A stretch of DNA of 64,000 nt, from assembly GCA_016000085.1 (NCBI GenBank), contig JAECRT010000005.1, positions 47,493 through 111,492 of the forward strand. The letters are read 5' to 3'. The DNA is from Sphingomonadaceae bacterium (GTDB lineage: Bacteria; Pseudomonadota; Alphaproteobacteria; Sphingomonadales; Sphingomonadaceae). The notes under the pieces were generated by a model, which was not told where the DNA came from, searched no databases, and was given only the letters and a program-made list of their open reading frames with translations. Below, piece by piece: positions 38,266 to 64,000 of this stretch; the stretch's first letter is position 1, and the number at the start of each line of letters is the position of its first letter. The translations under genes and the position numbers were made by a program.

Positions 38266-39249
38266 CTATTCGGCCGCTTCCAGCCTCGGCTCCGGTGCAT
38301 TCAGGCCGAGGCGACCAAGCAGATCCGCATCGGACGCCTGACCCGCATTGGGCGTGGTGAGCAACCGGTCGCCGGTGAAGATCGAGTTCGCCCCGGCAAG
38401 GAAGCACAGCGCCTGTCCCGCCTCGCTCATCGTTTCACGCCCGGCGGACAGGCGAACCATGGTGTCGGGCAGCACGATGCGCGCGGTGGCGACGGTGCGC
38501 ACAAACTCGATCTCGTCGATCGGCGCGCCTTCCGCATCCAGTTGCGCGTCGCCGATCGGCGTTCCGGCGATAGGCACCAGCCGATTCAACGGGACGCTTT
38601 GCGGATGTTGCGGCAGGGTCGCCAGCGCATGGATGAAGCCCACCCGCTCGCTGCGGCTTTCCCCCATGCCCATGATGCCGCCGCAGCAGACGTTGATGCC
38701 CGCGTCCCGCACATGGTCCAGCGTATCCATCCGGTCCTGCCAGACGCGGGTGGTGACGACCCGGTCATAATATTCCGGCGCGGTGTCGATATTATGATTG
38801 TAATAGTCGAGCCCCGCTTCCGCGAGCCGCGCGCTCTGGTCCGCCGTCAGCATACCAAGCGTCATGCATGTTTCCAGGCCCATCGCCCGCACGCCCTTCA
38901 CCATCGCGACGATTATGGCCATGTCGCGATCCTTGGGCGAACGCCATGCCGCGCCCATGCAGAAGCGTTCGCTGCCCGCCGCCTTCGCTTCGCGCGCCGC
39001 AGTCAGCACGGCGTCGACCGCCATCAATTTGCTGGCTTTGAGACCCGTGGCGAAATGAGCGGACTGACTGCAATAGCCGCAATTTTCGGCGCATCCGCCG
39101 GTCTTGATCGACAGCAAGGTCGATTGCTGCACATGGTTGGCCCGATGATGGGCGCGATGCACGGTCTGCGCCTGGAACAGCAGGTCGGCGAAGGGCAGGT
39201 CGAAAATCGCGGCGATCTCGTCGCGAGTCCAGTCGGTGCGGATGGTCAT
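38266..39249 (-). CDS. bioB: Biotin synthase
   Basis: [17 protein letters not shown] (radical SAM CxxxCxxC), [37 protein letters not shown]. Confidence 0.97.
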
Positions 39250-39263
39250 GGCAGATATGTCCT

Positions 39264-40007
39264 TCAGGCCATCAGCCCGCCGCCATTGGCGTGCAGGATC
39301 TGGCCGGTGATGAAGCTAGCGCGGGGCGAGGCCAAAAAGAGGATGGCTTCGGCGATCTCAACGGTTTCGGCCAAACGGCCGAGCGGCAGCGCTTGTGTCA
39401 CTGTCCTGACCGCGCCGGTGGTGTCGGACGCCATGAGCGCATCGACCGTTTCGGTGCGGGTCGGCCCGGCGGAAACGGCGTTGACGCGGATCGAGGGCGC
39501 GCCTTCCAGCGCCAGCGTGCGGGTGAAAGCCTCCACCCCCGCCTTGGCGGCGGCATAGACCGACAGGCCCGGCGTGGGCAAACGGGCGGCGGTGGACGAT
39601 ATGTTGACGATCGCGCCGCCCCTTTCGCGCAGGATGGGAAAGGCCGCGCGGCACAGCATGACCGTGCCGGTCAGGTTGGCCGCGATGGTGTCGGCGTACA
39701 GGGCGTCGGTCGTCTCCTCGATCAGCGCGGTCGGGAAGATGCCGGCTATATTGGCGAGGATGTCGAGGCTCCCGCCATGCGCGATCGCCGCGGAGACGGC
39801 CTGCGTTGCGGTATCGGCCTGCGCAATGTCGCCCGCCACGATCGTCGCCGCCGCGCCCAGACTGTCCGCCGCCGATCGCAGCGCTGCTGCGTTCCGGCCG
39901 ACCAGCACCACATGCGCGCCACGCTCCACCAGCAACCTGGCGACAGTCAGGCCGATGCCTCTGGAGCCGCCGGTCACGATGGCGGTCTTGTCCGAAAATT
40001 CCCCCAT
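39264..40007 (-). CDS. Short-chain dehydrogenase/reductase
   Basis: [32 protein letters not shown]. Confidence 0.93.
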
Positions 40008-40017
40008 CGCGCTTCGC

Positions 40018-40395
40018 CTATCCGTTGATGTTGCGATGCCGCGTGCGTCGATCGTCGATCACCAGCCGCACGCTCTGCTCGCCCTTCAAGCCGCACATGT
40101 CGGCATAGACGACATGCTGGCCGTGCAGTCGCGACCAGCCGATATCGGCCAGTTGCGCGATATGCGTCCCATGGTCGACATAGAGCCAGCCACCCACGCC
40201 CGCCAGTTCCACCACCAGCATGGCCGCAATCCCCGCCCGGACACGCGGTCGCCGCAGCCATACGGCCGCACGGGTGAAGATCGTATCCGCCGCCTCACCC
40301 TCCGGCACTGGGGCCAGACCCCAGAATATCGCCCAGCGCCGCAGCATCGCCATCGCCTGGGCGACCAGAAAGGCGGCGATGAGGCAGCAGGCCAT
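40018..40395 (-). CDS. Hypothetical small membrane protein
   Basis: Start overlaps the upstream stop (TGATG); two hydrophobic stretches; fills the gap inside the operon. Confidence 0.6.
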   Translation of the reverse strand: MACCLIAAFLVAQAMAMLRRWAIFWGLAPVPEGEAADTIFTRAAVWLRRPRVRAGIAAMLVVELAGVGGWLYVDHGTHIAQLADIGWSRLHGQHVVYADMCGLKGEQSVRLVIDDRRTRHRNING

Positions 40396-42320
40396 CAGGC
40401 CACCGGCACGATCGTCAGCGGCGTGCGACCAGCAAGCGCAACGGTCAAACGCGCCTTACCGTCCATGCCCGCCGTAAAGCGATCGTCCGTCTCGATAATG
40501 CGATAGCTGCGCCCCGGCACCAGCCGGTCCAGGCTGATCTGGCTCTGTATATCGCCCGCGCCGGGATGCAGCACCAGTTCCAGCGCCACTCCGTCCGTCA
40601 CTGCCCGGCCGACAATGACGTCGGGATAAGCGGCATCGGACAGGATCGGTCCCCTAGCCCAGGCGTCGGGCAGGCCGCGATTGACCATGTCGCGGATCGT
40701 GTTGCGCCCGCCCCAGGCCTGCGACGCGGCGACGCCTTCGCCCGAACGCTGGTCGATCGCCTTCATCGTCGCTTCGACGATCGGATCGTCACCCATTTCC
40801 AGCGCCGCCCAGAGCGTCACCATCAGCGGGTTGAGTTCGGGCCAGCGTGAAAAGTCCGCAGGCTTGCGCGTGTCCCAGCCCAGCGGCAGCAGGCGGAAAT
40901 CGAGCGACCCGTCCGGCTTCACGCTCATGAAATCCTGCTTCATCACTTCCCACAACCGTTCGGCGCCAGCAGGATCATAGGGAGTCATGAAGCGGACGCC
41001 CCATGTTTCGCCGAACAGGCCGGACAGGCTGGGCACCTGAAAGCCGAAGGGGGATGACGTGCAAACCTTGATGCGGCCATCGGCCATCATCATTTCTTCT
41101 TCCATCGTCCGGTCGAACCGGTCGCCGACCTGCGCGATATAATCGGTGCCGTGGCGGGTATCATGCAGCGACAGGGACGTGCGGCCAACGAGATTGCACA
41201 TCGAATAGATCCAGCGCGGTTCGCACGGGAACCAGCCCAGATCATAGCGTTTGAAATTCTTGACCACCTCGTCCAGCATCGTCGCGTGGCTGTAGGGGAA
41301 AGCGGTCTTTTCATCCCAACGGAAGGTCAGTGAACCGGGCGCGGCGAAGGGCGATGTTCCGCTGGCGGTTTCGAACAAGCCCAGCGAGACGCCCAAAAAG
41401 CCCGACAGCATGATATTGTCGGTCGTCACCGGGTTCTTTTCGACCCGGAAATTGCCCCACAGGCTTTCCCAATACCAGTAGTTCCAGGTTTTGCGGTCGA
41501 TATGCTTGCGGATCAGGTTTTCCTGCGCCGTGTTGAGATAGCCATGGAAGGCGGGCGTGCGGGTATATTGGCCCAGCGCCAGATTCCAGGACATGGTGCA
41601 GATCTGGTAGCGCAGCGCGCCGTCCTGCCATGTGTCTTCGGTGGAAAAGCCGTTCCAGCTGTCGACCGGCTGCAAGGCGAGATCCAGCATGCGGCGGAAC
41701 TCGGCCACCTGCGATGGCGGCATTTCCGGCGCGGCTTCGATCGGCCCATCGCGCATCACCGGTTGGGTCTTGGCGAGGATGGCGTTGAGTTCCGCGCCGC
41801 GCGCCTTGGCCGCGACAAATGCCTTCCTGCGACCGAGCGCCAGCCAGCCGTGCAGCGCCAGGACCACGCCGGGGATCGCCCATTCCATCCAGCTGACGCC
41901 CGTGCGCCCCTCGATCCATGCAGCGGACAGCAGCGCCGTGCCGACCATGACCGCCGGTGGCCCCAGGATCACACCGCGCGCCCACCAGATGAACATGATA
42001 ACCGCGAAGGCGATCACCGACACCACCGCGCCGATGATGCCGACTGCATTGCCCGCATAAAGGAAGCCCGCGCCGGGGAAGATGAGGCCCAGGCCAAACG
42101 CCTTCCACTGGGCGCTCATGCCCAGCAGCAGGGGCGCAATCCCGATCAGGAAGACCACCCCCAGCAGCGCGTAGAAGCGATATAACCGCCGGGCCGTCAA
42201 GCGGCCGTGCAATGTCGTGCGTTCCGGTATCAGGGGAATTTTGTCGACCAGCGGGCGCAACGTCGGCGCGGCATCGTCGCTGGGAAAATCCATTTCCAAT
42301 GGCAGTGTCCGCGCGGTCAT
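40395..42320 (-). CDS. Membrane-anchored linalool dehydratase/isomerase-family enzyme (Lis/LinD-like)
   Basis: N-terminal TM bundle followed by LRYQI, W.YW, NPV..DNIMLSG, FPCEPRWIYSMCN and HDTRHGTDY, paralleling LinD ENIMY.G, CEP....QCN and DRLHGTDY. Start ATG 42320 has an AGGAGAGG RBS. Confidence 0.8.
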   Translation of the reverse strand: MTARTLPLEMDFPSDDAAPTLRPLVDKIPLIPERTTLHGRLTARRLYRFYALLGVVFLIGIAPLLLGMSAQWKAFGLGLIFPGAGFLYAGNAVGIIGAVVSVIAFAVIMFIWWARGVILGPPAVMVGTALLSAAWIEGRTGVSWMEWAIPGVVLALHGWLALGRRKAFVAAKARGAELNAILAKTQPVMRDGPIEAAPEMPPSQVAEFRRMLDLALQPVDSWNGFSTEDTWQDGALRYQICTMSWNLALGQYTRTPAFHGYLNTAQENLIRKHIDRKTWNYWYWESLWGNFRVEKNPVTTDNIMLSGFLGVSLGLFETASGTSPFAAPGSLTFRWDEKTAFPYSHATMLDEVVKNFKRYDLGWFPCEPRWIYSMCNLVGRTSLSLHDTRHGTDYIAQVGDRFDRTMEEEMMMADGRIKVCTSSPFGFQVPSLSGLFGETWGVRFMTPYDPAGAERLWEVMKQDFMSVKPDGSLDFRLLPLGWDTRKPADFSRWPELNPLMVTLWAALEMGDDPIVEATMKAIDQRSGEGVAASQAWGGRNTIRDMVNRGLPDAWARGPILSDAAYPDVIVGRAVTDGVALELVLHPGAGDIQSQISLDRLVPGRSYRIIETDDRFTAGMDGKARLTVALAGRTPLTIVPVA

Positions 42321-42365
42321 CTTGCCTCTCCTCATGTCCCCGTTTCGATCGGGAGTCTCGATATT

Positions 42366-42394
42366 ATCGTAGGACGATTGCGTTCGACGTGCAA
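42366..42394 (-). promoter_or_regulatory. Sigma70 promoter TTGCAC-17-TACGAT overlapped by operator ATCGT-agg-ACGAT
   Basis: -35 at 42394-42389, -10 at 42371-42366, palindrome at 42366-42378. Confidence 0.7.
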
Positions 42395-42437: not shown

Positions 42438-42452
42438 CAGGGGAGGGTTGGG

Positions 42453-44807
42453 TTACATATGCCAGCTGACCTGGATGCCATAGGTGCGCGGCATGCCGGC
42501 AAAGCGCGAGATCGACGCCAGATTGTCCTGCACATTGGTCCAGTAATAGACGTTGCCGACATTGCGGACGTAGATGCCTGCCCGCACATTGCTGTTCGGG
42601 AATTCCAGCCCGGCGCGCAGGTCGATCAGCGTATAGGCCTTTACGTTAAAGCGCGGATCGGCATCCACAAAAGCGGTGGTGGTGTTCGCCAGCGCGGTCG
42701 TCGTCTTGCTGTTATGCGTCGCCGAAACGCCGATATAACCTTCCATCGATCCGCTGAGCGCCGCCTGATATTCGACATCGGCGACGGCGGTCAGCTTGGG
42801 CGCGTAAGGGAATTTCTGACCCGAAAAATTGCGCAGGTCGCCAAAGGCGTCGAAACCTTCAAATTCCTTGATCTTGGTATTGATGTAGGTGGCACCCAGA
42901 CTGACACGCAGGCCGTCGACCGGACGCCCCACGATCGATCCCTCGACGCCCCAGATGCGGCTCTTGGGAATTTGCACCAGCCCGTCGAGCGTGCCGAACG
43001 TCGGGTCCGGCTTACGACCGCGAAGCTGCTTGTCCTTATAGTCATAGTAGAAGCCGGCGATCGCATATTCGATCCTGCGGTCCATCAATGGTCCCTTGAT
43101 GCCCAGTTCATAGGCCGTGACCGATTCCTGCTTGACCGGCTGATAGCCCGTGTAGCTGGAAACCGATGCCGTCGGGAAACTGCCGGACTTGTAGCCGCGC
43201 GCGACGCGCGTGTAGAGCAACATCCCGCCGTCGGTCTTGTAATTGGCCCCGACGTTCCACGAGACATTGTGCTCGTTGAGCTTGTCGAACAGAGCAGGGT
43301 CGAAGATCTCCGGGAAATTCTGCGTGAAGGTGATGCAGCCGCCCGGCTGAACATTGGTACCGAACAGCGTGTTCCACCATATCGCCGTCTGGCCGCCAAA
43401 GTCGTTGGTGCAGCCTTCGAAGTCGCGCTTGCTGTCGGTATAGCGGATGCCGCCGATCAGCGTGATGTTCGGCGTGATCTTATATTCCGCATTGGCGAAA
43501 GCAGCGAGGTTCTTCACATCCTGGCGTGAATAGTTGAACGTCAGGACGCCGCGCGGCGCACCCGGAATCATCCACAGCGGGTTGGACGAAGGCCCTTCGC
43601 TGAAATTGTAGAAGAGCCGGTCGTAGGTCTTGGACTTGTTGTAATTGCCGCCGATGATGAAGTTCAGATTGTCTAGGGTGCCGGTGAGGCGGATTTCCTG
43701 CGCAAAATCCTTGATATAGCCCGTCGTGTTGGTGTCGACCGATGCATAGGTCGTTCCGTCGAAATCCTGCACCGAGTCCGTCTTGTAGTGCGAATAGGCC
43801 GAGATCGACGTCAAGGTCAGATTGTCATTGAGGTCCAGGTCGGCGCGCAGGCTGGCTTGCCAGAAACTGTCGTCACGGGCGGGACGGCGGCCGAACACGC
43901 CATAGCCCCAATCGGCCGCGCGTGGGTTCATCGGGCTACGCGGGTAATTTTTGAAGTTGGTGGCGTCCGGGCTGCCGCAGGTGCCCTCGGTCGATCCGGC
44001 GCAATTATCCGACACGATCTGCGCCGCCTGCGTGTCGCCCTTGTCGCGCCAGCCATTGACGTTGAGCAGGAACTTGAGGCGGTCGCTTGGCTGCCAGTCC
44101 AGCAATATGCGGCCCTGTAGCATGTCCTGCTTGCCCAGGTCGTCCGACCGAGTGAAGCTTTTTTGCCAGGTGCCCGACTGGATCGTGCGGACGGCGACGC
44201 GGGCCTTGAGCGTGTCGCTCATCGGCCCGCTGACATAGCCCTGAACATCATAGGTGGAAAAGCGACCGAAGCTGGCAGTGGCGCCCGCATCCAGTTCATT
44301 GGTCGGCTTGGCGACGATATAGTTGATCGCGCCGCCGGTCGTGTTCTGGCCGAACAGCGTGCCTTGTGGCCCCTTGAGAACCTCGACCCGCTCGATGTCG
44401 AACGCCGCGCCGCGCGATGGCGCGCTGAACGGGAGCGCGACTTCGTCGGTATAGACCGCGACGGTCGGCGCGGCCGACAGGGTCGTTTCATAGAAGCCGA
44501 TGCCACGGAGCGTATAGACCGGCGTGTTGAATGGCGACGGCTGCACCGTCAGGCCGGGCACGATCTTGCCCAGGTCGGTCGGCGACGTGATGCCGCGCTG
44601 GATCAGCGTGTCGCCCGTTTCCGCTGTGATCGACAGGCCAACGTCGGATAGCGACTGTTCGCGCTTGTTGGCGGTGACGATGATGTCGGCATAGCTGTTG
44701 TTGCCAGCGCCCGCCGTCTCCGCTTCTGCTCCGCCTGCCCATCCCGTCATGGCCACCAGCGAAACGCCGACGCACAACGATAGAGTGCTTGTCTTGTTCA
44801 TGCCCAT
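42453..44807 (-). CDS. TonB-dependent receptor
   Basis: Signal peptide, DIIVTANKREQ TonB box, FDIERVEVLKGPQGTLFG.NTTGGAIN plug motif, GYKSG, PRTYG. Start ATG 44807 has a GGAGAAGG RBS. Confidence 0.95.
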   Translation of the reverse strand: MGMNKTSTLSLCVGVSLVAMTGWAGGAEAETAGAGNNSYADIIVTANKREQSLSDVGLSITAETGDTLIQRGITSPTDLGKIVPGLTVQPSPFNTPVYTLRGIGFYETTLSAAPTVAVYTDEVALPFSAPSRGAAFDIERVEVLKGPQGTLFGQNTTGGAINYIVAKPTNELDAGATASFGRFSTYDVQGYVSGPMSDTLKARVAVRTIQSGTWQKSFTRSDDLGKQDMLQGRILLDWQPSDRLKFLLNVNGWRDKGDTQAAQIVSDNCAGSTEGTCGSPDATNFKNYPRSPMNPRAADWGYGVFGRRPARDDSFWQASLRADLDLNDNLTLTSISAYSHYKTDSVQDFDGTTYASVDTNTTGYIKDFAQEIRLTGTLDNLNFIIGGNYNKSKTYDRLFYNFSEGPSSNPLWMIPGAPRGVLTFNYSRQDVKNLAAFANAEYKITPNITLIGGIRYTDSKRDFEGCTNDFGGQTAIWWNTLFGTNVQPGGCITFTQNFPEIFDPALFDKLNEHNVSWNVGANYKTDGGMLLYTRVARGYKSGSFPTASVSSYTGYQPVKQESVTAYELGIKGPLMDRRIEYAIAGFYYDYKDKQLRGRKPDPTFGTLDGLVQIPKSRIWGVEGSIVGRPVDGLRVSLGATYINTKIKEFEGFDAFGDLRNFSGQKFPYAPKLTAVADVEYQAALSGSMEGYIGVSATHNSKTTTALANTTTAFVDADPRFNVKAYTLIDLRAGLEFPNSNVRAGIYVRNVGNVYYWTNVQDNLASISRFAGMPRTYGIQVSWHM

Positions 44808-45200
44808 CGTCCTTCTCCCAAATATCGCGCCCGCTTGTTCCGGGTCGCCTTCATGATCGGTGCGAAAAGGCCGCCATGATCGCGTCATGGCAGGCCGCAA
44901 ATAGCTGCATTTCAGGGGTGGCGGTCACGCCACAGCCGCCCACTGCGAGAATGACCCGCGCGCGATCCCGCGGACTCGCCCTGCCCTTGATGGCCAGCGC
45001 GCCCGCGGGCAACGCCGAGGCGCCTTGCGCCCGTGGCGGCAAGCAGCATCCGCGCCGAATAACCGGACAGACAGGTCAGCAAGCTTCTCATGCGCATGGG
45101 TCTTCCTCTCAAGATGGCACGCCTGTCTTATCGCAGGTCGCGTCCAGGTGCCCTGATTGCCCGGACGCCCTTGTTTCCACAGCTCAGCTTGTTCGTCAAT

Positions 45201-56505: not shown

Positions 56506-57732
56506 TCATGATGCGGCCAATATCGTCACCGCCGACAGGCCGTCCTCTACGCCATAGAAGCCGCCGCTATTTTCGGCGAGCGCGATCCGTGCGCCCTCAA
56601 CCTGCCGTTTTCCGGCGTCATCGCGCAATTGCGTCACCAGTTCGTAAATCTGGCCCAGCCCCGTGGCGCCCAGCGGATGCCCTTTCGACACCAGCCCGCC
56701 CGATACATTGACCGGCACGCGCCCGCCCAGCGCGGTCACGCCCGCTTCCGCATCATGGCCAGCCTGCCCCGGCGCGCTCAGGCCCAGCGCCTCGACCTGC
56801 ACGATCTCGCCCGATGAACTGGCGTCATGCACTTCGGCTAGCTGGATATCGCGCGGGCCGACACCGGCCTTTTCATAAGCGCGGGCCGACACGATGCGGG
56901 TGACATGGGCGCTATAATCGTCAGGCGCGCGGTCGCTGCCGCTCTGCGATTCGGTGGCCAATATGCGGATGGCGCGGGCCTGCGGGAAACGCACAAGGAC
57001 GTCGCCCGCGCACAGGATGGCCGCCGCCGCGCCGTCGCTGATCGGCGCGCACATCGCCACGGTGAGCGGCCAGGATACGTTGGGGGCGGCCAGCACGTCG
57101 TCGATGCTCATCGCATTTTGATATTGGGACAGCGGGTTGAATTGGGAATGATAGTGATTCTTCGCCGACACCGCCGCAATCTGCCGCTGGGTCGCGCCAT
57201 AGGTCGCCATATAGAGCCGCGCCTGCGCGGCATAGGCGTCCATCATGATATTCGGTCCGGGACCGTCCAACCCTTCGGGTGCTGGCGCAAGCATACCTTG
57301 CGTAGCGTCGATATAGCGGCGCGCTTCGATGGCATCGAGAGGTTGCTGGAACACGGCGAAGCGCTTTGCCCGGTCCGTGCTGTAGAGCTTCTCCACACCC
57401 ACGACGAGCGCGACATCGGCCAGACCGGCGCGGATATAGTCGGCGGCAACGTGCAGGCCGATCGTCGCGCTGGCGCAGGCGGCCTCGACATGCAGCACGC
57501 GCACCCCCTGGATACCGAGGGGGCGCAGCGCATATTCGCCCGGTATCGACATTTCTCCGGCGAAGAAGCCCTGCACGACATTGGCGTAGATCGCCATGCC
57601 GAGGTCGCCCGCCTTGGCGCCAGCATCGCCCAGAGCCTGGGTCACGGCCTGTTGCGCCAGATCGGTGTGCGTGCGGTCCAGATGGCGGCCAAAAGGCGTC
57701 ATGCCGACGCCGATGACATGCACGTCGCGCAT
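56506..57732 (-). CDS. Thiolase, SCP2/lipid-transfer type
   Basis: [49 protein letters not shown]. Confidence 0.92.
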   Translation of the reverse strand: MRDVHVIGVGMTPFGRHLDRTHTDLAQQAVTQALGDAGAKAGDLGMAIYANVVQGFFAGEMSIPGEYALRPLGIQGVRVLHVEAACASATIGLHVAADYIRAGLADVALVVGVEKLYSTDRAKRFAVFQQPLDAIEARRYIDATQGMLAPAPEGLDGPGPNIMMDAYAAQARLYMATYGATQRQIAAVSAKNHYHSQFNPLSQYQNAMSIDDVLAAPNVSWPLTVAMCAPISDGAAAAILCAGDVLVRFPQARAIRILATESQSGSDRAPDDYSAHVTRIVSARAYEKAGVGPRDIQLAEVHDASSSGEIVQVEALGLSAPGQAGHDAEAGVTALGGRVPVNVSGGLVSKGHPLGATGLGQIYELVTQLRDDAGKRQVEGARIALAENSGGFYGVEDGLSAVTILAAS

Positions 57733-59282
57733 CAGATGCGCCTCCCCGCTTCTTCCCAATAGGGCTTGCGCAATTCGGCGCGCGATACCTTGCCCGCATT
57801 GGTGCGCGGCAGCTGGCGGATGATCTCGATCCGCTTGGGCGTTTTCACCGGACCCAGCGCATCGCGGGCAAAGGCGATCAGCGTCGCCTCCTGCGGCTTA
57901 TGACCGGCACGCGGCTCGACGAAGGCGATCACCGCCTCGCCCCATTTCTCGTCGGGGATGCCGACCACCGCGCAATCCTGCACCGCGTCATGCGCGAGCA
58001 GCGCCTTTTCGACCTCGGCGGGGTAGATGTTGAAACCGCCGGAGATGATCATGTCCTTCTTGCGATCCACGACATAGAACCAGCCGTCCGCGTCGCGCAC
58101 GCCGATGTCGCCGGTATGGTGCCAGCCGAAGGTCGAGACTTCCGCCGTGGCTTCCGGGTTCTTGTAATAGCCGCCCATCACCAGAGGGCCGCGCACGACG
58201 ATCTCGCCGCGCTCGCCCGGTGGGAGAATCTGCCCGTCGTCATCCATGATCTCGACGATCGAAAGCAGATTTGGGCGACCGCAGCTACCCGGATGCGCCA
58301 GTTCACCCGCCGCGTTCAGATGTTCATGCGGCGGCATGGCAGTGACGCACATCGGCGCTTCGGTTTGACCGAAGCTGGCGTTCATCACAGGGCCGAAGAC
58401 CGCGATGGCTTCCTTCAAACGATCCGTCGACATGGGCGCGCCAGCGTAGGAGATATATTGGAGACTGGAGAAATCGGCGTCGCGCACGCCGGGGTGCGAC
58501 AGCAGCATGTAAATGGCGGTGGGCGGCAGGAACATGTAAGTGACGCGATGCTTTTCGATCGCATCGATCACCGGACCGGGATCGAATTTGGGCAGTATGA
58601 TGACGGTACCGCCCAGCGCCATGCTGGCGAGCGCCAGCGGTCCGGCAGCGTGGGTCATGGGTGCGGCGACCAGATTCACCGGCGGCACGGTCATCGGCAT
58701 GGACGCGACCAGGCTGGAGACAAGCGCCTGCCAGTTGCCGTTGGTCAGCATCACGCCCTTCGACCGGCCGGTGGTACCGCCGGTGTTGGCGAGAAAGCCC
58801 AGTTCCTCCGGTGCGCCGGTGCGGCGCTGGGGGACGGGTGGCGCGTCGGGGTCGATATGGTCTTCGAGATAGAAATCCGCTTCCTCGAACGGCTGGTCGA
58901 GGGCGATGTAACGGCGGATGTTCGGACATTCGGCCCGAAACGTGGCGATCCGGTCGGCCACTTCGGAATGAACGAACAAGGTGTCGATATCGAGCAGGTC
59001 GAACAGATAGGCGTTCTCGCTCGCGCTGGCGCGGTTGTTGGCCATCGCCCAGACGCCGTCGGCGCGTAATATGCCCAGCACCGCTTCGAACGCGACCATG
59101 GCATTGCCGCTGAGGACGGCGGCGTGCGCACCGGCAGGGAAATCGTCCGCGATCAACATCGCGGCGATGGCGTGCGTGCGCGCCGATATCTCAGCATAGG
59201 TGCGCGCCGTATCTCCCTCGATCATGCAGGGGCGGTCATGGGCGATGCGCAGGCCGCGATCGAAATAGTCGATCATCCGCAT
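57732..59282 (-). CDS. Acyl-CoA synthetase / AMP-binding ligase
   Basis: TGGTTGRSKG, FGQTE, HTGD.G, VDRKKDMIISGG.NIYP.EVE, PRTNAGK. Confidence 0.94.
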   Translation of the reverse strand: MRMIDYFDRGLRIAHDRPCMIEGDTARTYAEISARTHAIAAMLIADDFPAGAHAAVLSGNAMVAFEAVLGILRADGVWAMANNRASASENAYLFDLLDIDTLFVHSEVADRIATFRAECPNIRRYIALDQPFEEADFYLEDHIDPDAPPVPQRRTGAPEELGFLANTGGTTGRSKGVMLTNGNWQALVSSLVASMPMTVPPVNLVAAPMTHAAGPLALASMALGGTVIILPKFDPGPVIDAIEKHRVTYMFLPPTAIYMLLSHPGVRDADFSSLQYISYAGAPMSTDRLKEAIAVFGPVMNASFGQTEAPMCVTAMPPHEHLNAAGELAHPGSCGRPNLLSIVEIMDDDGQILPPGERGEIVVRGPLVMGGYYKNPEATAEVSTFGWHHTGDIGVRDADGWFYVVDRKKDMIISGGFNIYPAEVEKALLAHDAVQDCAVVGIPDEKWGEAVIAFVEPRAGHKPQEATLIAFARDALGPVKTPKRIEIIRQLPRTNAGKVSRAELRKPYWEEAGRRI

Positions 59283-59314: not shown

Positions 59315-60772
59315 TTACCGCCGCAGCGTGAGGTCGAGCGCGCCGGACTTGATCTGGACCAGCGGCGCGCTGGCGAGCTTCATAAGTTTCTGCACCTGGC
59401 TCAATTCCGGCGATGAAAGCGTCGGGTAATCGCGCGCGACCGGTCCGGCCTTGCGCATCTTCTCGATGTCGAACGCGGGAACCAGCGCGCGCAGGATCAG
59501 TTCGTCATCATCCTCCCCCGTGCCATGTCGACGGCGCAGTTCGGCGAGGTCGGGCTGCTCGGGCGGATTGGCGAGGATTTCCCTGGCGCGCGGCTTGGAC
59601 AATATCTGGTCGAGCACATTGGCGTCGATGGGGGCCACGGGATCGCCGTAGAAGCCCGCAGCATATTGGATCACTTCGTCGGGCACGACCGAATAGCGCT
59701 TGCCGGTCACGATGTTCAGCACGGCAAGCGTGCCGACCAGTTGCGCAAAGGGCGTCGCCATGCCGGGATAGCCCAGTTCCCGCCGCACGGTCGCCACTTC
59801 CGCCAGCACGGCAGGCAGCTTGTCGAGCATGTTCTGCTGAACCAACTGCGCGCGCAGCGTGCCCATCATGCCACCGGGGATCTGGTGCTTGAGCGCCGTC
59901 ACATCATATTCGAAGAACTGGTTGACCAGGAAGCCTGCGGCCTTGCCCACCTTTTCGAAATGGTCGGCGACAGGCTTGAGCTTGGAGGTGTCGATATTGT
60001 GGGTGTGACCCATGATCTCGACATTCTTCGTCATGATTTCGATCGAGGGGATGGACGGGCCGTTGGCCATGGGGCGCACGGCAGTGTGCAGCACGGTTAC
60101 GCCGAACTCGATCGCATCCATATAGGATTTGGCGGACTGCCCCAGCATGTTGTTGGCGTGCATCTCGATCGGTTTGCCGCGCGCCTTTGCGACGATGGCG
60201 GGGACGAGGGTGGAGATGCGATCGCGGTCCAGTACGCCGCCAGTGTCGTAAAGCAGCAGGCTGTCGACTTCGGGCAGCGCCGAGAGCTTGTCCGCCTTGT
60301 CCGCATAATAAGCATCGTCATGGACGGGCGAGAGCGTGAACAGCATCGTGCCCGCCACCTGGCAGCCATGGCCCTTTGCGATTTTGGCGAGGCGGTGCAT
60401 CTTGTCGATGTTGAAAAGCACATCGTAGAGCCAGAAGCTGCGGATGCCATGAACGCAGAGACGATCCACCCACAGGTCCATCAGCACGTCGGGGGTGAAG
60501 CCGAATGTCACCGACCCGTTGGAACGACACCCGGCGCGCAGCGGCGTATGAGGCATCGAGCCGATCAGAAGGTCCAGGCCCGCCCAGGGATCTTCCTGGC
60601 AGTGGCGTGTGAGCACTTCGAACAGCGAGGAGCCAGCAAGGCTGATGATATTATAGCCGGTCTTGTCGATGATCGGCGTGACGGGCAGCGCCATGCCAGC
60701 CTGCATCCGCATGCCCCACAAGCTCTGCTGACCGTCGCGCATGGTTTCGTCGAGGAAGGTGATATGGGCCAT
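59315..60772 (-). CDS. Carboxyltransferase subunit, pyruvate carboxylase B / oxaloacetate decarboxylase alpha-like
   Basis: DETMRDGQQSLW..RM, EDPW, HQIPGGMM..L..QL, VRRELGYP.MATP.AQ.VG. Confidence 0.9.
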   Translation of the reverse strand: MAHITFLDETMRDGQQSLWGMRMQAGMALPVTPIIDKTGYNIISLAGSSLFEVLTRHCQEDPWAGLDLLIGSMPHTPLRAGCRSNGSVTFGFTPDVLMDLWVDRLCVHGIRSFWLYDVLFNIDKMHRLAKIAKGHGCQVAGTMLFTLSPVHDDAYYADKADKLSALPEVDSLLLYDTGGVLDRDRISTLVPAIVAKARGKPIEMHANNMLGQSAKSYMDAIEFGVTVLHTAVRPMANGPSIPSIEIMTKNVEIMGHTHNIDTSKLKPVADHFEKVGKAAGFLVNQFFEYDVTALKHQIPGGMMGTLRAQLVQQNMLDKLPAVLAEVATVRRELGYPGMATPFAQLVGTLAVLNIVTGKRYSVVPDEVIQYAAGFYGDPVAPIDANVLDQILSKPRAREILANPPEQPDLAELRRRHGTGEDDDELILRALVPAFDIEKMRKAGPVARDYPTLSSPELSQVQKLMKLASAPLVQIKSGALDLTLRR

Positions 60773-60777
60773 GGGCG

Positions 60778-62133
60778 TTACTCCGGGGACGCGAGCAGGG
60801 TCTGCTCAAGCCAGCGTGTGTGGATGGTGTTGGCGATGAAATCGGGATGGCGCACGATGCGGCGGTGCAGGTCGATCGTCGTGGGGACGCCCTCGACCTT
60901 GAAGCTGTCCAGTGCGTCGGTCAGCTTTGCCACAGCATCGGCGCGGTCGGCGCCGTGGACGATCAGCTTGCCGATCATGCTGTCGTAGAAGGGCGGGATC
61001 ACCGCGCCTTGCGACATATGGCTGTCGAGGCGGATGCCATCCCCCACCGGCGGTTGCCAGCCGGTGATGCGGCCAGGGACCGGGATGAAGCCCTTGCCCA
61101 CATCCTCCGCATTGATGCGACATTCGATGGCATGGCCGGTGACGCGGACTTTATCCTGCGTCACCGACAGCGCCGACCCGCCGGCTATACGGATCTGTTC
61201 CTGCACCAGGTCGAAGCCGGTGATCATCTCGCTGACCGGATGCTCGACCTGGATGCGGGCGTTGACCTCTATGAAATATACTTCCTCGCGCGCGACATCG
61301 TAGAGAAATTCTGCGGTGCCGGCGTTACGATAGTTGACGCTGGACGCGAGCGCGACGGCGGCCTCATGCAAATGCTGGCGCACGCGATCGGGCATGGCGG
61401 TGCACGGCGCTTCCTCGACCAGCTTTTGGTAACGGCGCTGGACCGAACAGTCGCGTTCGCCGAAATGGACGACATTGCCGGTGCCGTCCCCCATCAGCTG
61501 GACCTCGACATGGCGGGCCTGGGGCACGAAGCGTTCCATGAACAGGCGGCCGTCGTTGAAGGCGGCCTGCGCCTCGGCACTGGCTTTGTGGAAACCAGCC
61601 TCGACCTCGTCCGCATTGTTGGCGATTACCATGCCGCGCCCGCCGCCGCCGGCCGACGCCTTGAGCAGAACCGGATAACCAATGCGATCGCCTTCGCGGC
61701 GCGCATCGGCGGCCGACGCGATTTCTTCGCTGCCCGGAACCAGCGGGACGCCAGCCGCCTTTGCCATCGCGCGGGCCTGAAGCTTGTCGCCCAGCGCATC
61801 GATCATGTCGGGTTCGGGACCGACGAAGGCGATGCCATGTTCGGCGCAGAGGCGCGGCAGGATGGCGCGTTCGGAGAGAAAACCATAGCCGGGATGAAGC
61901 GCGTCGCAACCAGCGGCCTTGGCGGCATGGACGACGAGACGCGGGTCGAGATAGCTGCGCGCAGCCGGACCGGGGCCAAGGACCAACGTGCGATCGGCGA
62001 GTTGCGCGGCGGCGCTGCCGCGGTCGGCTTCGGACACGCCGATCACGGTTTCGGCATTGAGGCCCTGTGCGGCGCGGACGATCCGCAGCGCAATCTCACC
62101 CCTGTTAGCTATGAAAAGGCGGTTGACGGCCAT
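60778..62133 (-). CDS. accC: Biotin carboxylase
   Basis: IANRGEIA.R, HPGYGFLSE, KASAGGGGRGM, ERDCSVQRR.QK..EEAP, EVNARIQVEHPVSE, ECRINAED, PFYDSMIGK. Confidence 0.95.
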   Translation of the reverse strand: MAVNRLFIANRGEIALRIVRAAQGLNAETVIGVSEADRGSAAAQLADRTLVLGPGPAARSYLDPRLVVHAAKAAGCDALHPGYGFLSERAILPRLCAEHGIAFVGPEPDMIDALGDKLQARAMAKAAGVPLVPGSEEIASAADARREGDRIGYPVLLKASAGGGGRGMVIANNADEVEAGFHKASAEAQAAFNDGRLFMERFVPQARHVEVQLMGDGTGNVVHFGERDCSVQRRYQKLVEEAPCTAMPDRVRQHLHEAAVALASSVNYRNAGTAEFLYDVAREEVYFIEVNARIQVEHPVSEMITGFDLVQEQIRIAGGSALSVTQDKVRVTGHAIECRINAEDVGKGFIPVPGRITGWQPPVGDGIRLDSHMSQGAVIPPFYDSMIGKLIVHGADRADAVAKLTDALDSFKVEGVPTTIDLHRRIVRHPDFIANTIHTRWLEQTLLASPE

Positions 62134-62140
62134 GGCGCGA

Positions 62141-62668
62141 TCAGCCCTGATTCTTGGCGGGAATGACGGCGAACAGAGGCTGATCGGCTTCGACCATCGC
62201 GCCATCGGCGGCAAGGATGGCGTGAACCGTGCCGGAAACCCCCGCGCGAACAGCGGTAAAGAGCTTCATCACCTCTACCAGGCACATTTCGGTGTCGTCG
62301 GTCACGACCGACCCGACGTCGACATAGACCGGCGAACCGGGCTTGGGCGCTCGGTAGAAAGTGCCGAGATAGGGCGCGGTTACGATGACGGCGTCCTCGG
62401 GCAGATCGGATGTCGCGTGGATGGCCGGAGAGGCCGCCACCGAAGGAACCGCTGTTGCTGCTGGCGCGCTTGTCGGCGCAGCCACCGCCTCCACCTGCAC
62501 GGTGACTGCCTTGGCGCCGAGGCCGGGTGCGGTCGCGTCGGTCGATAGATAGATTTCGACATCCCCCGCCCGCACATGCAACTCGCGCATGCCCGATGCT
62601 TGAAAATCGGCAATCAGCGCTTCGATATCCTGAAGCGATGCGCCTTCGGTCCCTGGCCCGCCGCTCAT
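62141..62668 (-). CDS. accB: Biotin carboxyl carrier protein
   Basis: APYLGTFYRAP.PG, biotinylation site EVMKLF, G.MVE..QPLF. Confidence 0.93.
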   Translation of the reverse strand: MSGGPGTEGASLQDIEALIADFQASGMRELHVRAGDVEIYLSTDATAPGLGAKAVTVQVEAVAAPTSAPAATAVPSVAASPAIHATSDLPEDAVIVTAPYLGTFYRAPKPGSPVYVDVGSVVTDDTEMCLVEVMKLFTAVRAGVSGTVHAILAADGAMVEADQPLFAVIPAKNQG

Positions 62669-64000
62669 GCCTTCTTCTCCCGCAGGGCTTCGATCTGGTC
62701 TCGCGTCAGTCCGGCGCCCTTGCCCTTCAGGAGCCGTGACTGTTGCTGTTCAAGCGCATGCAGAGCTTCGACATCGGCCGAAGCAGGCGCGCCGCGCACG
62801 CTGCTGTCACACAGGAAGCGATAGGGATGCTGCATCTGCGCCGGGCGGAACGCTGCCGCGCGCGCATTGTAATCCGCGAGCGATAGCGCGCCTGCACTAG
62901 TGACATAGCGATCCACCTTCTCCGGCAGATGCGTGACGCCGCCCGCGACATGCGCCTCGCTCGGGCTGCCGTCCCCATTCAGCACCGAATAGGGAATGTG
63001 CGAGATATATCGGGCCGGCCGACCACTGTGCATCATCATCGCATAGTCGTGCAGCTGCTGGCTGGGCAGGTCGACCAGCCCCACCAGTTCACCCAGGAAA
63101 TCGCGACCGAACTCGTCGTTGAGCAGGGGACGAAAGCGGTCTGCCCGCTCATCGATCGTCATCCAGTCGTCGACGTCATAGACGCCCGCGACATGTGCGA
63201 AATCCTTGATGAGGGAGAAATAGACCAGAGCGCCTGCATCCATCATCTGATCGCGTGACCAGCCCGCCATATTCTTCCACAGATCGACAGTCGCGGTGCG
63301 AAAGATGTCGGTGAGCATCTCGAACGTCTCGGCCAGCTCCTCGGCCGATCCCATGCCGACGGGGACGTAATTTTCCGTGAGCACATCGGACGTATATAGT
63401 CCGATGCCCGTCAACTTCTCGGCGGTCAGTTCGGGCCTGGATTCAAAACTGCCCCAATCGTCCATCAGGTAGAAATGGCAGTCGGTCGCTTCCATCGTGA
63501 TGGTCAGGTTGGGATAGGGAATGGCGTCCGCCACCCCGTCCAGCCAAGGATAATCGCCCTGCGCCAAATCGGAAAAGTCGCGAATGATGAGTTCGCGATT
63601 GTCCGCCAGCTTGTAGGGGCCACTATTGTTGAGGGTGCAGCGGCTCTCGCAGGACACCAGGAAACCATATTGCGAAATGGTGGCAAGAAAGCTTTGAGCC
63701 GCCTTGTGCAGCCGGTCGCCATTGGCGCAAGCATGCAGGTCGGCATGGAAGCGCTGGATGCGTCGTTCGGGCAGAAGCTGGACGCGCTGGCCAAATTCGC
63801 GCGCATTGAGATGGCCGTCCTCGCGCTGCTGCGCCAGTTTGAAGCGGCGCCAGAAGTCCATCACATAAGCGACGTCTTCCGCCGCATCCTCCGGCTTTTG
63901 CAGGCCGAGGTTGATGAGGATCTCGCGCCCCAGCAGGAAAAATGTCGGCAGCCCCCAGCCGGGCAGATTGCCGAACTTGCCGCCCATCGCCCGTGCCCGA
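62665..64000 (-). CDS. Hypothetical protein, 5'-truncated by the window edge; candidate substrate-binding subunit of the kinase
   Basis: Frame is open to the window edge (>440 aa) and coupled to the BCCP gene by an ATGA overlap; no motif I recognise with certainty. Confidence 0.8.
   Translation of the reverse strand, partial: RARAMGGKFGNLPGWGLPTFFLLGREILINLGLQKPEDAAEDVAYVMDFWRRFKLAQQREDGHLNAREFGQRVQLLPERRIQRFHADLHACANGDRLHKAAQSFLATISQYGFLVSCESRCTLNNSGPYKLADNRELIIRDFSDLAQGDYPWLDGVADAIPYPNLTITMEATDCHFYLMDDWGSFESRPELTAEKLTGIGLYTSDVLTENYVPVGMGSAEELAETFEMLTDIFRTATVDLWKNMAGWSRDQMMDAGALVYFSLIKDFAHVAGVYDVDDWMTIDERADRFRPLLNDEFGRDFLGELVGLVDLPSQQLHDYAMMMHSGRPARYISHIPYSVLNGDGSPSEAHVAGGVTHLPEKVDRYVTSAGALSLADYNARAAAFRPAQMQHPYRFLCDSSVRGAPASADVEALHALEQQQSRLLKGKGAGLTRDQIEALREKKA

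Follow-up and report, generated by a model that had tools for sequence, protein, structure and literature searches.

A syntenic set of genes under a common palindromic operator was found in the window, the whole stretch of 64,000 nucleotides from a Sphingomonadaceae bacterium that was analysed. The island is read as a GntR-controlled regulon that has spread horizontally among sphingomonads and serves the catabolism of a lipophilic alcohol or ketone, probably a tertiary-alcohol isoprenoid, with a probability of about 0.55. That its modules form one conserved, operator-linked unit is supported by gene order and operator positions in other genomes.

Gene content of the island

Gene families were assigned by Pfam and NCBIfam profiles, and every gene listed in a preliminary description of this DNA was found in the window. 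Coordinates are those of the window.

38266..39249, minus strand: bioB, biotin synthase (TIGR00433, 382 bits), starting 14 bp past the SDR gene
39264..40007, minus strand: SDR of the front end (adh_short_C2, 195 bits)
40018..40395, minus strand: 125-aa small membrane protein, two hydrophobic segments by hydropathy, no Pfam or NCBIfam family match
40395..42335, minus strand: membrane-anchored Ldi/Lis-type hydratase or isomerase (PF18566, 245 bits)
42366..42378, no strand: operator copy 5' of the Ldi operon, exact
42453..44900, minus strand: TonB-dependent outer-membrane receptor (plug and beta-barrel domains)
45201..45213, no strand: operator copy in the divergent TonB/GntR promoter region, exact
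45291..46058, plus strand: GntR/FCD regulator 1 (GntR and FCD domains)
46112..46124, no strand: degenerate operator copy 5' of EthD, two mismatches
46176..46490, plus strand: EthD-family small protein (TIGR02118, 53 bits)
46534..47700, plus strand: Rv3169-family protein (NF053593, 350 bits)
47714..48697, plus strand: APH-fold kinase (PF01636, 117 bits)
48765..51200, minus strand: membrane PQQ dehydrogenase, glucose/quinate type (TIGR03074, 889 bits)
51353..51766, minus strand: BCCP-like protein without the biotinyl-Lys, pseudo-BCCP (TIGR00531, 30 bits, under the cut-off)
51763..53493, minus strand: truncated PPDK, VadK/Rv1127c type (NF004531, 679 bits)
53490..54095, minus strand: 201-aa protein, probable Rv1126c counterpart (embedding search lead; no Pfam or NCBIfam family match)
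54092..54841, minus strand: 249-aa phospho-His swivel carrier (PF00391, 30 bits)
54927..54939, no strand: operator copy in the divergent swivel/SurE promoter region, exact
54941..55810, plus strand: SurE-family phosphatase (PF01975, 202 bits; NF001490, 305 bits)
55807..56481, plus strand: GntR/FCD regulator 2 (GntR/FCD domains)
56506..57759, minus strand: SCP2-type thiolase (thiolase domains)
57732..59282, minus strand: AMP-forming acyl-CoA ligase (AMP-binding domain)
59315..60772, minus strand: PycB/OadA-type carboxyltransferase, CT (PF02436)
60778..62214, minus strand: biotin carboxylase, BC (NF006367, 598 bits)
62141..62668, minus strand: genuine BCCP with EVMKLF hairpin (PF00364 and alignment)
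62665..64000, minus strand, continuing to ~64215 past the window: 516-aa family-less protein, first gene of the carboxylase operon

The boundary of the island is an FtsX/MacB permease gene beyond the 516-aa gene.

Operator and regulation

The recurrence of one operator in front of several units, claimed from the window alone, was borne out. The palindrome ATCGT-N3-ACGAT occurs there in three exact copies (42366, 45201 and 54927) against 0.08 expected; none of 100 shuffled sequences held three exact copies, and only seven are found in the whole 3.23-Mb assembly. All three are intergenic, each at an island promoter, and a one-mismatch copy lies ~95 bp upstream of the 516-aa gene. Five other sphingomonad genomes with the same gene set have the same operator at the matching promoters. 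The copy 5' of the Ldi operon has orthologous copies in loci L041, L012 and L010, that of the TonB/GntR region is kept in L002, L040, L041, L010 and L012, and that of the swivel/SurE region in L001, L002, L003, L004, L040, L041, L010 and L012, while one-mismatch copies occupy the place of the EthD-upstream site in L040, L010 and L012. One palindromic operator is thus located at five or six promoters, at positions conserved across genera.

The operator fits the palindromic GT-N-AC type of GntR/FadR-like regulators, and GntR/FCD regulator 1 is predicted to be, likely, the repressor that binds it. Both regulators described earlier as paralogs were found, with cross-matches of ~50% identity; regulator 2 is also present in Aquisediminimonas.

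Conserved core and variable parts

At least seven genomes carry the gene set in syntenic arrangement. In Novosphingobium sp. G106, PASSN1 and 9U, in Croceicoccus BE223 and C. bisphenolivorans, and in Aquisediminimonas, both the synteny and the places of the operator are found again. Six loci retain the same order of genes between the TonB receptor and the thiolase, and in every locus the SurE gene and the kinase operon are transcribed divergently. Orthologs of the TonB receptor (64-72% identity) stand in the same place in L002, L010, L011 and L012, those of the SDR are encoded behind Ldi in L010 and L012 (60-62% identity), and the small gene after Ldi is kept in L010, L012 and L041. In at least seven further cases CT and Ldi orthologs come from contigs of equal length and are therefore apparently co-located.

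Two genes of the window do not belong to this core. The PQQ dehydrogenase, counted as a member in the preliminary description, is missing from all six other loci, no such gene being present between the APH and pseudo-BCCP genes in L001/L040, L003/L041, L010 and L012; it is a window-specific insertion outside the conserved system. The in-operon bioB is real but peculiar to the window: it closes the Ldi operon in this genome only and is therefore a variable accessory, being absent from the corresponding position in L010, L011, L012 and L041 and represented in G106 by an aminotransferase gene.

Some loci vary more deeply. In strain 9U the core is retained, and ACAD and APH genes behind the TonB receptor replace those of Ldi, the small protein and the SDR; genome G043 has the core in a different gene order and gave no match to Ldi; the related carboxylase of G095 is not accompanied by the dikinase. 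Such variation would be expected if the terpene-alcohol front end, the dehydration tandem and the carboxylase pathway were independent neighbours acting on different substrates, with a common regulator type and a mobile island. This is very improbable in view of the same 13-bp operator at the promoter of each module in several genera, the order retained from receptor to thiolase, and the contigs that Ldi and CT orthologs apparently share in many metagenomes.

The proposed multi-protein kinase

Sequence comparison and modelling suggest a kinase composed of a VadK/Rv1127c-type truncated PPDK, the 249-aa carrier, the 516-aa protein and an Rv1126c-like protein. Of the split dikinase proposed earlier, the barrel-less PPDK and the separate phospho-His protein are both present; the split as such, however, already exists in the Acv and Hpe systems, and the novelty of the kinase is its composition. 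The truncated PPDK consists of an ATP-grasp and a phospho-His domain (GGSTSHAA motif) without the PEP/pyruvate barrel, and TIGR01828 matches it only at model positions 193-538 of 865. NF004531 was above the cut-off also in five control genomes with full-length PPDKs, so that the truncated type cannot be defined by this score alone. Among G043, G095 and G187, the short PPDK was found only in G043, the genome that also has the swivel and 516-aa genes. In the 249-aa carrier, whose N-terminal half is without family, His188 lies inside a GGxVRSHLGIL motif that is invariant across six orthologs. The second BCCP does lack its lysine, as first described: Gly or Asp replaces the biotinyl-Lys in six of six orthologs examined, and the 'thumb' is deleted in the alignment. 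For the 201-aa protein the nearest Atlas clusters were 201-aa proteins mainly of Actinomycetota (score 0.99); it probably corresponds to Rv1126c, VadK's partner; this is a lead only, as the homology comes from the embedding search only.

The 516-aa protein, whose full-length gene was read in L033, gave no Pfam or NCBIfam family and no detectable homology with the AcvA N-domain. Among its distant relatives, some are joined to a swivel domain in one polypeptide and others are encoded directly after a swivel gene. The AF2 model of the protein was of high quality (pLDDT 91, pTM 0.92), and its complex with the swivel protein reached an ipSAE of 0.84 against 0.00 for the best control. Of 80 solved complexes 58 came up to that mark, as did 2 of 110 mismatched pairs. 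The runs had at least 81% of contacts in common, with a partner pLDDT of at least 81. The modelled interface includes swivel residues 186-188, His188 among them, with an invariant Arg192 and a nearly invariant Arg29. Conserved Arg residues at the modelled phospho-His contact suit a phosphotransfer site, and the 516-aa protein is proposed as the acceptor or substrate subunit of the dikinase.

VadK (Rv1127c) autophosphorylates on His with ATP/Mg, and its solubility is raised by Rv1126c; in M. tuberculosis it is described as a regulatory histidine kinase that contacts methylcitrate-cycle enzymes and tunes flux, with no known small-molecule acceptor (PMC13400623). Both systems have a PPDK truncated after the phospho-His domain and a co-transcribed gene of ~201 aa. 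The M. tuberculosis pair, however, adjoins methylcitrate genes and is read as regulatory, whereas in the island the pair belongs to a catabolic operon together with a biotin carboxylase, a second His carrier and a large subunit resembling an acceptor. The description of VadK as regulatory, and not as a small-molecule kinase, speaks against a substrate kinase. The VadK-like kinase, swivel, 516-aa and 201-aa proteins and pseudo-BCCP could instead form a regulatory phosphorelay that tunes the carboxylase or flux by protein phosphorylation, as has been proposed for VadK, the Lys-less BCCP serving as a decoy and SurE having an unrelated or resetting role. This is considered improbable: the kinase genes share operator and promoters with catabolic genes as stoichiometric operon members, the 516-aa gene heads the carboxylase operon, the conserved Arg contact suits phosphotransfer, and in the Acv and Hpe precedents it is the substrate that is phosphorylated.

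Carboxylase, ligase and thiolase in comparison with known systems

The sequence of kinase, carboxylase, phosphatase and CoA-dependent cleavage has been demonstrated for Acv (Sphingobium sp. SYK-6; acvABCDEF and vceAB) and Hpe (Rhodococcus rhodochrous GD02; hpeHI, hpeCBA, hpeD and hpeEF); XccABC/AcsA/TioL of Aromatoleum aromaticum EbN1 is a related system. The island has in common with Acv and Hpe the ATP phosphorylation, a three-component biotin carboxylase with PycB-type CT, a phosphatase and the cleavage to acetyl-CoA, and all the kinases come from the PEP-synthase/PPDK superfamily. According to the Acv and Hpe papers, those kinases are of the two-subunit PpsAB type and the phosphatases are NagD-type HAD proteins. 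In the island one truncated PPDK holds both the ATP-grasp and the His domain in place of a PpsA/PpsB pair, with the separate His carrier, the 516-aa and 201-aa proteins and the Lys-less BCCP as further parts; the phosphatase is SurE, and the regulator is GntR rather than AraC. Its ligase and thiolase differ in type from HpeEF (acetoacetyl-CoA-synthetase-like enzyme and CouO hydrolase) and from VceAB, and the TonB receptor, the Lis-type enzyme, the SDR and the kinase/lyase tandem are additional. Neither SurE nor the pseudo-BCCP is part of the published Acv and Hpe pathways, and the same holds for the second phospho-His protein and the Ldi front end, in agreement with the preliminary description.

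Compared with OadA and PycB, the metal site of the island CT is altered from KDMAG to YDTGG and from HxH to HAN. The Tyr/HxN replacement is common to the whole island CT clade, whereas acv-type CTs keep Lys and HxH. A genome of the same genus holds a canonical acvABCDEF-type cluster, whose CT is only 37% identical to that of the island. These sequence differences support the earlier view of a distinct variant of the Acv/Hpe scheme rather than an ortholog. The nearest solved structures were SCP2-thiolase type 1 for the thiolase (6hsj, E 1e-60) and Mtb FadD8 for the CoA ligase (E 7e-83).

Front end and probable dehydration tandem

The assignment of the Ldi protein to the LinD/Lis family stands. 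Aligned with LinD of Castellaniella defragrans, it keeps the CEP...CN (Cys-Glu-Pro...Cys-Asn) and HGTDY motifs but has Phe at the position of His in the 'KGH' motif, and the similarity extends over only ~190 residues (E 3e-8). Transmembrane segments lie within residues 51-141. In size and architecture it matches Lis of Thauera linaloolentis 47Lol, with ~640 aa, a membrane anchor at the N-terminus and an Ldi-like domain at the C-terminus (PMC4791888).

The EthD/unknown/APH unit is present as described, but its 'unknown' member, of the Rv3169 family, is homologous to 25-phosphosteroid lyase (PDB 9fzn; phmmer E 1.1e-29). Its AF2 model, of moderate confidence (pLDDT 67, pTM 0.72), matched 9fzn in Foldseek (E 4e-22, TM 0.67-0.72) and in VIA (Z 32.3, rmsd 3.6 over 312 residues). 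The protein is likely a phosphate-eliminating C-O lyase, as predicted from sequence and model. For the APH kinase the nearest solved chains were APH-like proteins, the ACAD11 kinase domain and 3ats, which we take to be Rv3168. With a lyase homolog as neighbour, the pair would thus be an ATP-dependent alcohol dehydration tandem.

The corresponding system is 25-hydroxysteroid kinase (25-HSK)/25-phosphosteroid lyase of Sterolibacterium denitrificans (PMC8449060; PDB 9fzn, 9g4c), in which kinase and lyase dehydrate tertiary alcohols (PMC8449060). The homology of lyase sequence (identity ~25%) and fold and the neighbouring phosphotransferase-fold kinase fit tertiary-alcohol dehydration. In the island the two genes are adjacent, together with the EthD protein, whereas the 2021 paper, which predates the identification of the lyase gene, reported no candidate lyase gene near that of 25-HSK (PMC8449060). 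The island host, unlike S. denitrificans, is an aerobic sphingomonad without Mo-hydroxylases near the tandem.

Proposed pathway and substrate

The TonB receptor may import a lipophilic compound, on which the membrane-anchored Lis-type enzyme would shift or add a hydroxyl, to be oxidised to a carbonyl by the SDR. The APH-fold kinase and the lyase homolog could phosphorylate and then eliminate a further hydroxyl, probably a tertiary one. The ketone intermediate would then be phosphorylated by the multi-protein dikinase: the truncated PPDK would pass phosphate from ATP through its own His to that of the 249-aa carrier, which would dock on the 516-aa subunit as the site of substrate phosphorylation, with the 201-aa protein and the Lys-less BCCP-like protein as putative accessory subunits. 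The activated ketone would be converted to a beta-keto acid by BC, BCCP and the PycB-type CT with its altered metal site, SurE would take off the phosphate and the ligase form the CoA ester. The SCP2-type thiolase would yield acetyl-CoA and a shortened acyl-CoA, which may feed the neighbouring ACAD10/11-like and beta-oxidation genes. We infer the order of the steps, the role of SurE and the substrate; an enol phosphate, which carboxylation would remove, agrees less well with the conserved phosphatase than a stable ester of the kind formed in Hpe. A point against the scheme is the conversion of an allylic alcohol or aldehyde to a methyl ketone, a step without an assigned enzyme.

Bisphenol A is catabolised via a tertiary alcohol and 4-hydroxyacetophenone, and the cluster is carried by Croceicoccus bisphenolivorans, a bisphenol degrader, which keeps an aryl ketone among the candidates. 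The same scheme would then serve a hydroxyaryl methyl ketone: hydration or dehydration of a vinylphenol or bisphenol-derived tertiary alcohol, followed by oxidation, would give 4-hydroxyacetophenone or acetovanillone, and phosphorylation of the phenol, carboxylation, dephosphorylation by SurE, CoA activation and thiolysis would lead to a benzoyl-type CoA. The demonstrated Acv and Hpe and the proposed Xcc systems all act on 4-hydroxyaryl ketones, and Hpe requires a phosphatase after carboxylation. An aryl substrate is nevertheless rather unlikely, as the congeneric genome already has the acv-type cluster, with its divergent CT clade and metal site, and no gene for ring cleavage, an O-demethylase, a P450 or a stilbene-cleaving oxygenase was present in any locus examined.

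The evidence leans towards a tertiary-alcohol isoprenoid over a lignin-type aryl ketone; of the substrates first suggested, vinylphenols are less favoured by the linked genes and aliphatic or isoprenoid compounds more. An aliphatic substrate is suggested by the Lis architecture, the FadD8-like ligase and SCP2-type thiolase, which resemble fatty-acid or branched-chain enzymes, and the linked split ACAD11 homolog, which in three genomes adjoins the cluster and in strain 9U takes the place of the Ldi genes behind the TonB receptor. Repeated linkage to the loci is also seen for beta-oxidation genes and an ACAD10/11-like 4-hydroxyacyl-CoA module, and the characterised relatives of Ldi and of the lyase act on terpene or steroid side chains.

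Carboxylase and relation to the Acv and Hpe pathways

Phosphorylation-assisted biotin carboxylation of ketones was demonstrated only in 2022, for lignin-derived aryl ketones. In the published pathways of Sphingobium sp. SYK-6 (Acv) and Rhodococcus (Hpe), the kinases AcvAB and HpeHI have two subunits and resemble phenylphosphate synthase, the biotin carboxylases are AcvCDE and HpeCBA, and the phosphatases AcvF and HpeD are HAD proteins of the NagD type; N. aromaticivorans has the UPF0261 kinase MarK in place of the two-subunit kinase. The account of Acv and Hpe given in the preliminary description agrees with these papers. The island (38266-64000 of the window) appears to solve the same problem a second time with parts that are largely non-homologous: the kinase, the phosphatase, the regulator and the clade of the carboxyltransferase differ.

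The exact acv architecture, including the HAD gene, was found in G187, a genome of the same genus. The Acv/Hpe kinase pair, consisting of a subunit of ~660 aa with a C-terminal swivel and a PPDK_N subunit of ~390 aa, is present in G187 and absent from the island, whose PPDK_N protein differs from the Acv-type subunit in having its own His domain and shows only a local alignment with an AcvB-like protein (34% identity over 82 residues). The island contains no HAD gene, and hence no NagD-type phosphatase of the AcvF/HpeD kind; a SurE-family phosphatase is present instead.

The biotin carrier (BCCP), biotin carboxylase (BC) and PycB-type carboxyltransferase (CT) of a three-component biotin carboxylase are all encoded in the island. 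The CT and BC are 37% and 54% identical to those of G187, and the CTs of ten further genomes of the order are 34-39% identical to the island CT. In the pyruvate-carboxylase-type metal site of the island CT the Asp is kept (RDGQQS), the Lys is replaced by Tyr (YDTGG) and the HxH by HAN. All acv-type CTs in the alignment have the canonical IKDxGG lysine and HxH, whereas the island clade has LLYDTxG and HxNN, and comparison with OadA and PycB showed the changed positions to be those of the metal site. The cluster is therefore not a set of close acv orthologs of the same composition, a case that had been considered beforehand, and the divergence of the CT together with the altered metal site indicates a separate lineage, similar to Acv and Hpe in its working but not a member of them.

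A related carboxylase (CT 65% and BC 80% identical), with the same Tyr and HxN changes, occurs in locus L030 (G095:C1:2024000-2043999), together with a pseudo-BCCP-like gene, a TonB receptor and two BCCPs. The 516-aa protein, the swivel protein and the short PPDK described below are all missing from genome G095, so that a dikinase does not always accompany the remodelled CT clade. The second, lysine-less BCCP of the preliminary description (pseudo-BCCP, 137 aa, 51353-51766) is borne out by the alignment: the biotinyl-lysine position is occupied by Gly or Asp in all six orthologs and the thumb is missing, while the genuine BCCPs have VMKL.

Searching the literature for the present combination of genes, and for clusters linking methyl ketones, biotin carboxylase and phosphorylation, brought up only the papers on Acv, Hpe and MarK, and a search on bisphenols nothing about this cluster. 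The kinase composition is not described in the literature searched, and the scheme of phosphorylation, carboxylation, dephosphorylation and cleavage is partly supported. The distinct scheme of the earlier interpretation stands in refined form; the PQQ dehydrogenase and bioB, listed there among the island genes, are not conserved members. With such a different regulon common in sphingomonads of soil, biofilm and wastewater, the chemistry looks broader than lignin monomers, and in biotechnology the system could allow more kinds of ketone and tertiary alcohol to be funnelled into central metabolism.

A proposed multi-protein kinase

Candidate kinase components of the island
51763-53493, short PPDK (576 aa)
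53490-54095, 201-aa protein
54092-54841, swivel carrier (249 aa)
62665 to about 64215, 516-aa protein

The short PPDK contains the PPDK_N (ATP-grasp) and PEP-utilizers (phospho-His) domains, with the GGSTSHAA motif, and stops before the PEP/pyruvate barrel; TIGR01828, a model of 865 positions, is matched no further than position 538, and NF004531 gives 679 bits. NF004531 was rejected as a specific marker of truncated PPDKs, as it scored above the cut-off in five control genomes and full-length PPDKs score too. The architecture is that of the virulence-linked truncated PPDK VadK (Rv1127c) of M. tuberculosis, which in the presence of ATP/Mg phosphorylates itself on a His and gains stability from Rv1126c, encoded in the same operon (PMC13400623, a 2026 paper). 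The gene of the 201-aa protein overlaps both neighbours and sits at the position of Rv1126c; the nearest Atlas clusters, to be taken as a lead only, are 201-aa proteins mainly from Actinomycetota (score 0.99). The island shows a VadK-type protein and a putative counterpart of Rv1126c among catabolic genes, together with an evident partner for accepting the phosphate. The 249-aa carrier contains a second swivel domain, in which His188 is invariant.

The 516-aa protein has 418 relatives among 1.84 billion representatives. Several distant relatives carry an N-terminal swivel fusion or directly follow a 155-aa swivel gene, and this Rosetta-stone arrangement links the 516-aa protein to the carrier. 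The AF2 model of the protein has a pLDDT of 91 and a pTM of 0.92. For its complex with the carrier an ipSAE of 0.84 was obtained, against 0.00 for the best control, a mark attained by 58 of 80 solved complexes and by 2 of 110 mismatched pairs; between runs at least 81% of contacts agree, the partner pLDDT is at least 81, and among the interface residues are 186-188 of the carrier, Arg192, which is invariant, and Arg29, which is nearly so. The complex model supports binding of the two proteins, without proving it.

No match to the 516-aa protein was obtained in sequence searches of Pfam, NCBIfam and PDB, and an Atlas feature search gave no usable one. With the model, Foldseek on PDB gave nothing better than an E of 0.17, VIA-align in its wide form nothing above a Z of 2.4, and the Atlas shape search no TM over 0.24. 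As modelled, the protein is without a structural relative in these searches, which is not proof of a new fold, as the 515-residue model was searched whole; a confident model without assigned family makes it a good structural target. The suggestion that the family is homologous to the substrate domain of AcvA was not supported, the hhalign match to an AcvA-like protein being confined to the swivel domain of fused members.

The short PPDK goes together with these partners: genome G043, from another family of the order, has short PPDK, swivel and 516-aa genes in one contig stretch, and G095 and G187 have full-length PPDKs only. In two loci (L034, 6343-8534, and L036, 6394-8438) a distant relative of the 516-aa protein either has a fused swivel domain or comes after one, and the next gene encodes an unrelated small protein; the 201-aa protein had no similarity by BLASTP to the small proteins following distant 516-aa relatives. 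A P450 and an aldehyde dehydrogenase are close by in L034, and neither locus has a biotin carboxylase nearby, so that the swivel-plus-acceptor module serves in other contexts too.

In the mechanism proposed, the short PPDK would pass the phosphoryl group to the carrier in a His-to-His relay, and the 516-aa protein would take the place of the absent barrel. It is tempting to speculate, with a probability of roughly one in five, that this is a new class of small-molecule dikinase, in which phosphate would pass from a VadK-type ATP-grasp/His protein through a free His carrier to the 516-aa acceptor subunit, of unassigned fold, and an unactivated aliphatic ketone would be turned into its enol phosphate, which the CT, devoid of the enolising metal site, would carboxylate directly. 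If so, VadK and Rv1126c of M. tuberculosis would be what is left of a metabolite kinase, or related to one.

Probable dehydration tandem and front end

The protein encoded between EthD and the APH-fold kinase belongs to the Rv3169 family (NF053593, 350 bits). It matches the 25-phosphosteroid lyase structure 9fzn by phmmer (E 1.1e-29), including the RD(H/R)SWG motif, and in structure comparison by Foldseek (E 4e-22, TM 0.67-0.72) and VIA (Z 32.3, rmsd 3.6, 312 residues aligned), the VIA match standing well above the next hits, which have the AttH and kievitone-hydratase fold; the model used is of moderate confidence (pLDDT 67). In Sterolibacterium the phosphotransferase 25-HSK and 25-phosphosteroid lyase dehydrate a tertiary side-chain alcohol via a high-energy phosphoester (PMC8449060). 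The adjacent APH-fold kinase would suit the kinase role in such a tandem, and the earlier guess of phosphorylation followed by elimination gains support from this specific precedent. The families of Rv3168 and Rv3169 are met here as a kinase and a 25-phosphosteroid-lyase homolog, which, with VadK and Rv1126c, gives testable functions for two M. tuberculosis gene pairs; if the dikinase proposal is true, Rv3168/Rv3169, which belong to these families, would work in tandem to dehydrate an alcohol at the expense of ATP.

Croceicoccus bisphenolivorans has a further, paralogous set of such genes next to its main cluster, and kinase/lyase tandems may differ in specificity.

Paralogous set of C. bisphenolivorans (locus L011, 14041-18470)
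Zn-ADH
APH kinase
137-aa protein
Rv3169-like protein (27% identical)
SDR

The front-end protein contains an Ldi domain (PF18566, 245 bits) in which CEP...CN aligns with the catalytic Cys pair of LinD. The His of the LinD 'KGH' motif, which we take to be catalytic, is Phe in the aligned position (NIMLSGF here, NIMYKGH in LinD). In size and membrane anchor the enzyme resembles the linalool isomerase (Lis) of Thauera (PMC4791888).

Substrate

From comparison with characterised relatives, we lean towards a lipophilic, probably isoprenoid substrate that bears a tertiary alcohol. The lean rests on the Lis size and membrane anchor of the front end, on the isoprenoid side chain that is attacked by the characterised relative of the lyase homolog, on the ligase and thiolase being nearest to FadD8 and SCP2-type thiolases, and on the recurrence beside the cluster of a split ACAD10/11 homolog with beta-oxidation genes.

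Genes beside the island in the window
32252-38256, region of these genes, with a TetR gene ahead of the split ACAD10/11 homolog
33024-34244, ACAD
34178-35308, APH-fold kinase

The ACAD and the kinase (33024-35308) together match full-length ACAD11 (PDB 8v3u/8v3v) and 3dxp, and so form a split bacterial 4-hydroxyacyl-CoA kinase/eliminase of the ACAD10/11 type; enoyl-CoA hydratase, thiolase and NMO-family genes follow. The pair and beta-oxidation genes stand beside the cluster in the window (33024-38256), in C. bisphenolivorans (NMO 86% identical) and in Aquisediminimonas, and in strain 9U an ACAD10/11 homolog and beta-oxidation genes replace the Ldi genes behind the TonB receptor.

An aryl ketone would agree with the biochemical precedents, all of which act on hydroxyaryl ketones, and the conserved phosphatase would suit a stable phosphoester. 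No aromatic ring-processing genes were seen in any of the loci, which adds to the lean towards an isoprenoid, and an aryl ketone is considered an improbable substrate.

Conservation and distribution

Locus contexts were fetched via orthologs of CT, Ldi and APH, and their genes were mapped by tblastn. One supercluster was found across the fetched contexts.

Units of the supercluster
TonB receptor, Ldi, small protein, SDR
GntR
EthD, Rv3169-like protein, APH
Swivel protein, 200-aa protein, short PPDK, pseudo-BCCP
SurE, with or without a second GntR
516-aa protein, BCCP, BC, CT, ligase, thiolase

A lack of co-occurrence elsewhere, which the preliminary description had envisaged, was not found: the same units stand together in other loci, and at least seven more records, metagenomic or genomic, list CT and Ldi orthologs on contigs of identical length. 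Of 301 species-representative genomes of the order, 3 have the 516-aa protein, 1 has a close Ldi ortholog and 3 have a CT of at least 65% identity. The system is rare among these genomes, and co-occurrence was therefore read from metagenome and draft-genome contigs. Between genera the island orthologs are 65-96% identical, which, given their rarity in the order, fits horizontal spread. The DNA sequencing runs with the system are biofilm, soil, wastewater, rhizosphere and activated-sludge metagenomes, with no RNA run listed, and these sample types are uninformative about the substrate.

Neither the PQQ dehydrogenase nor bioB is conserved across the loci. The former, a membrane enzyme of the glucose/quinate/shikimate family (TIGR03074, 889 bits) encoded at 48765-51200 between APH and pseudo-BCCP in this genome only, is missing in every other locus, and was rejected as a pathway member and regarded as an insertion. 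bioB is found at its position here only, Novosphingobium sp. G106 having an aminotransferase gene there.

The variant in G043 (L028, G043:C32:10000-29999, and G043:C32:8238-9965) has the same parts reordered: short PPDK, TonB receptor, SurE, thiolase, swivel, 516-aa protein, ligase, 201-aa protein, BCCP, BC, CT and second thiolase; Ldi had no match in this genome.

Island content and operator

The source assembly measures 3.23 Mb and is 83% complete. The list of 22 genes from 38266 to the window end is confirmed, its family assignments agreeing with Pfam and NCBIfam. The last gene crosses the window end, and its length of 516 aa was obtained after the rest of the contig had been fetched; an FtsX/MacB permease upstream of it marks the island boundary.

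The recurring operator of the preliminary description, ATCGT-N3-ACGAT, was recovered at three island promoters. Three exact copies in the 64 kb compare with 0.08 expected, none of the shuffles had as many as three, and the whole assembly has seven.

Operator sites in the island
42366, exact, upstream of the Ldi operon
45201, exact, divergent TonB/GntR promoter region
54927, exact, divergent swivel/SurE promoter region
Degenerate copies, upstream of EthD and of the 516-aa gene

The operator occupies orthologous intergenic positions in Novosphingobium sp. 9U, G106 and PASSN1, Croceicoccus sp. BE223 and Aquisediminimonas sediminicola, and Aquisediminimonas has an extra copy before the adjoining acyl-CoA dehydrogenase gene. 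Co-regulation of the island modules is supported chiefly by the fact that these positions are kept from genus to genus, and we infer that both paralogous GntR/FCD proteins bind the operator.

The genes upstream at 20767-32168 seem to have no connection with the island; they include CobN and CobW-type genes, a gene for an M20 peptidase with an AsnC regulator, and one for a multicopper oxidase with CopC. The other four exact copies of the palindrome in the source assembly (G000, contig positions C24:528, C40:32465, C76:3877 and C76:6190) all have the spacer GGC/GCC (ATCGTGGCACGAT) and may represent another GntR-type regulon or part of a repeat.
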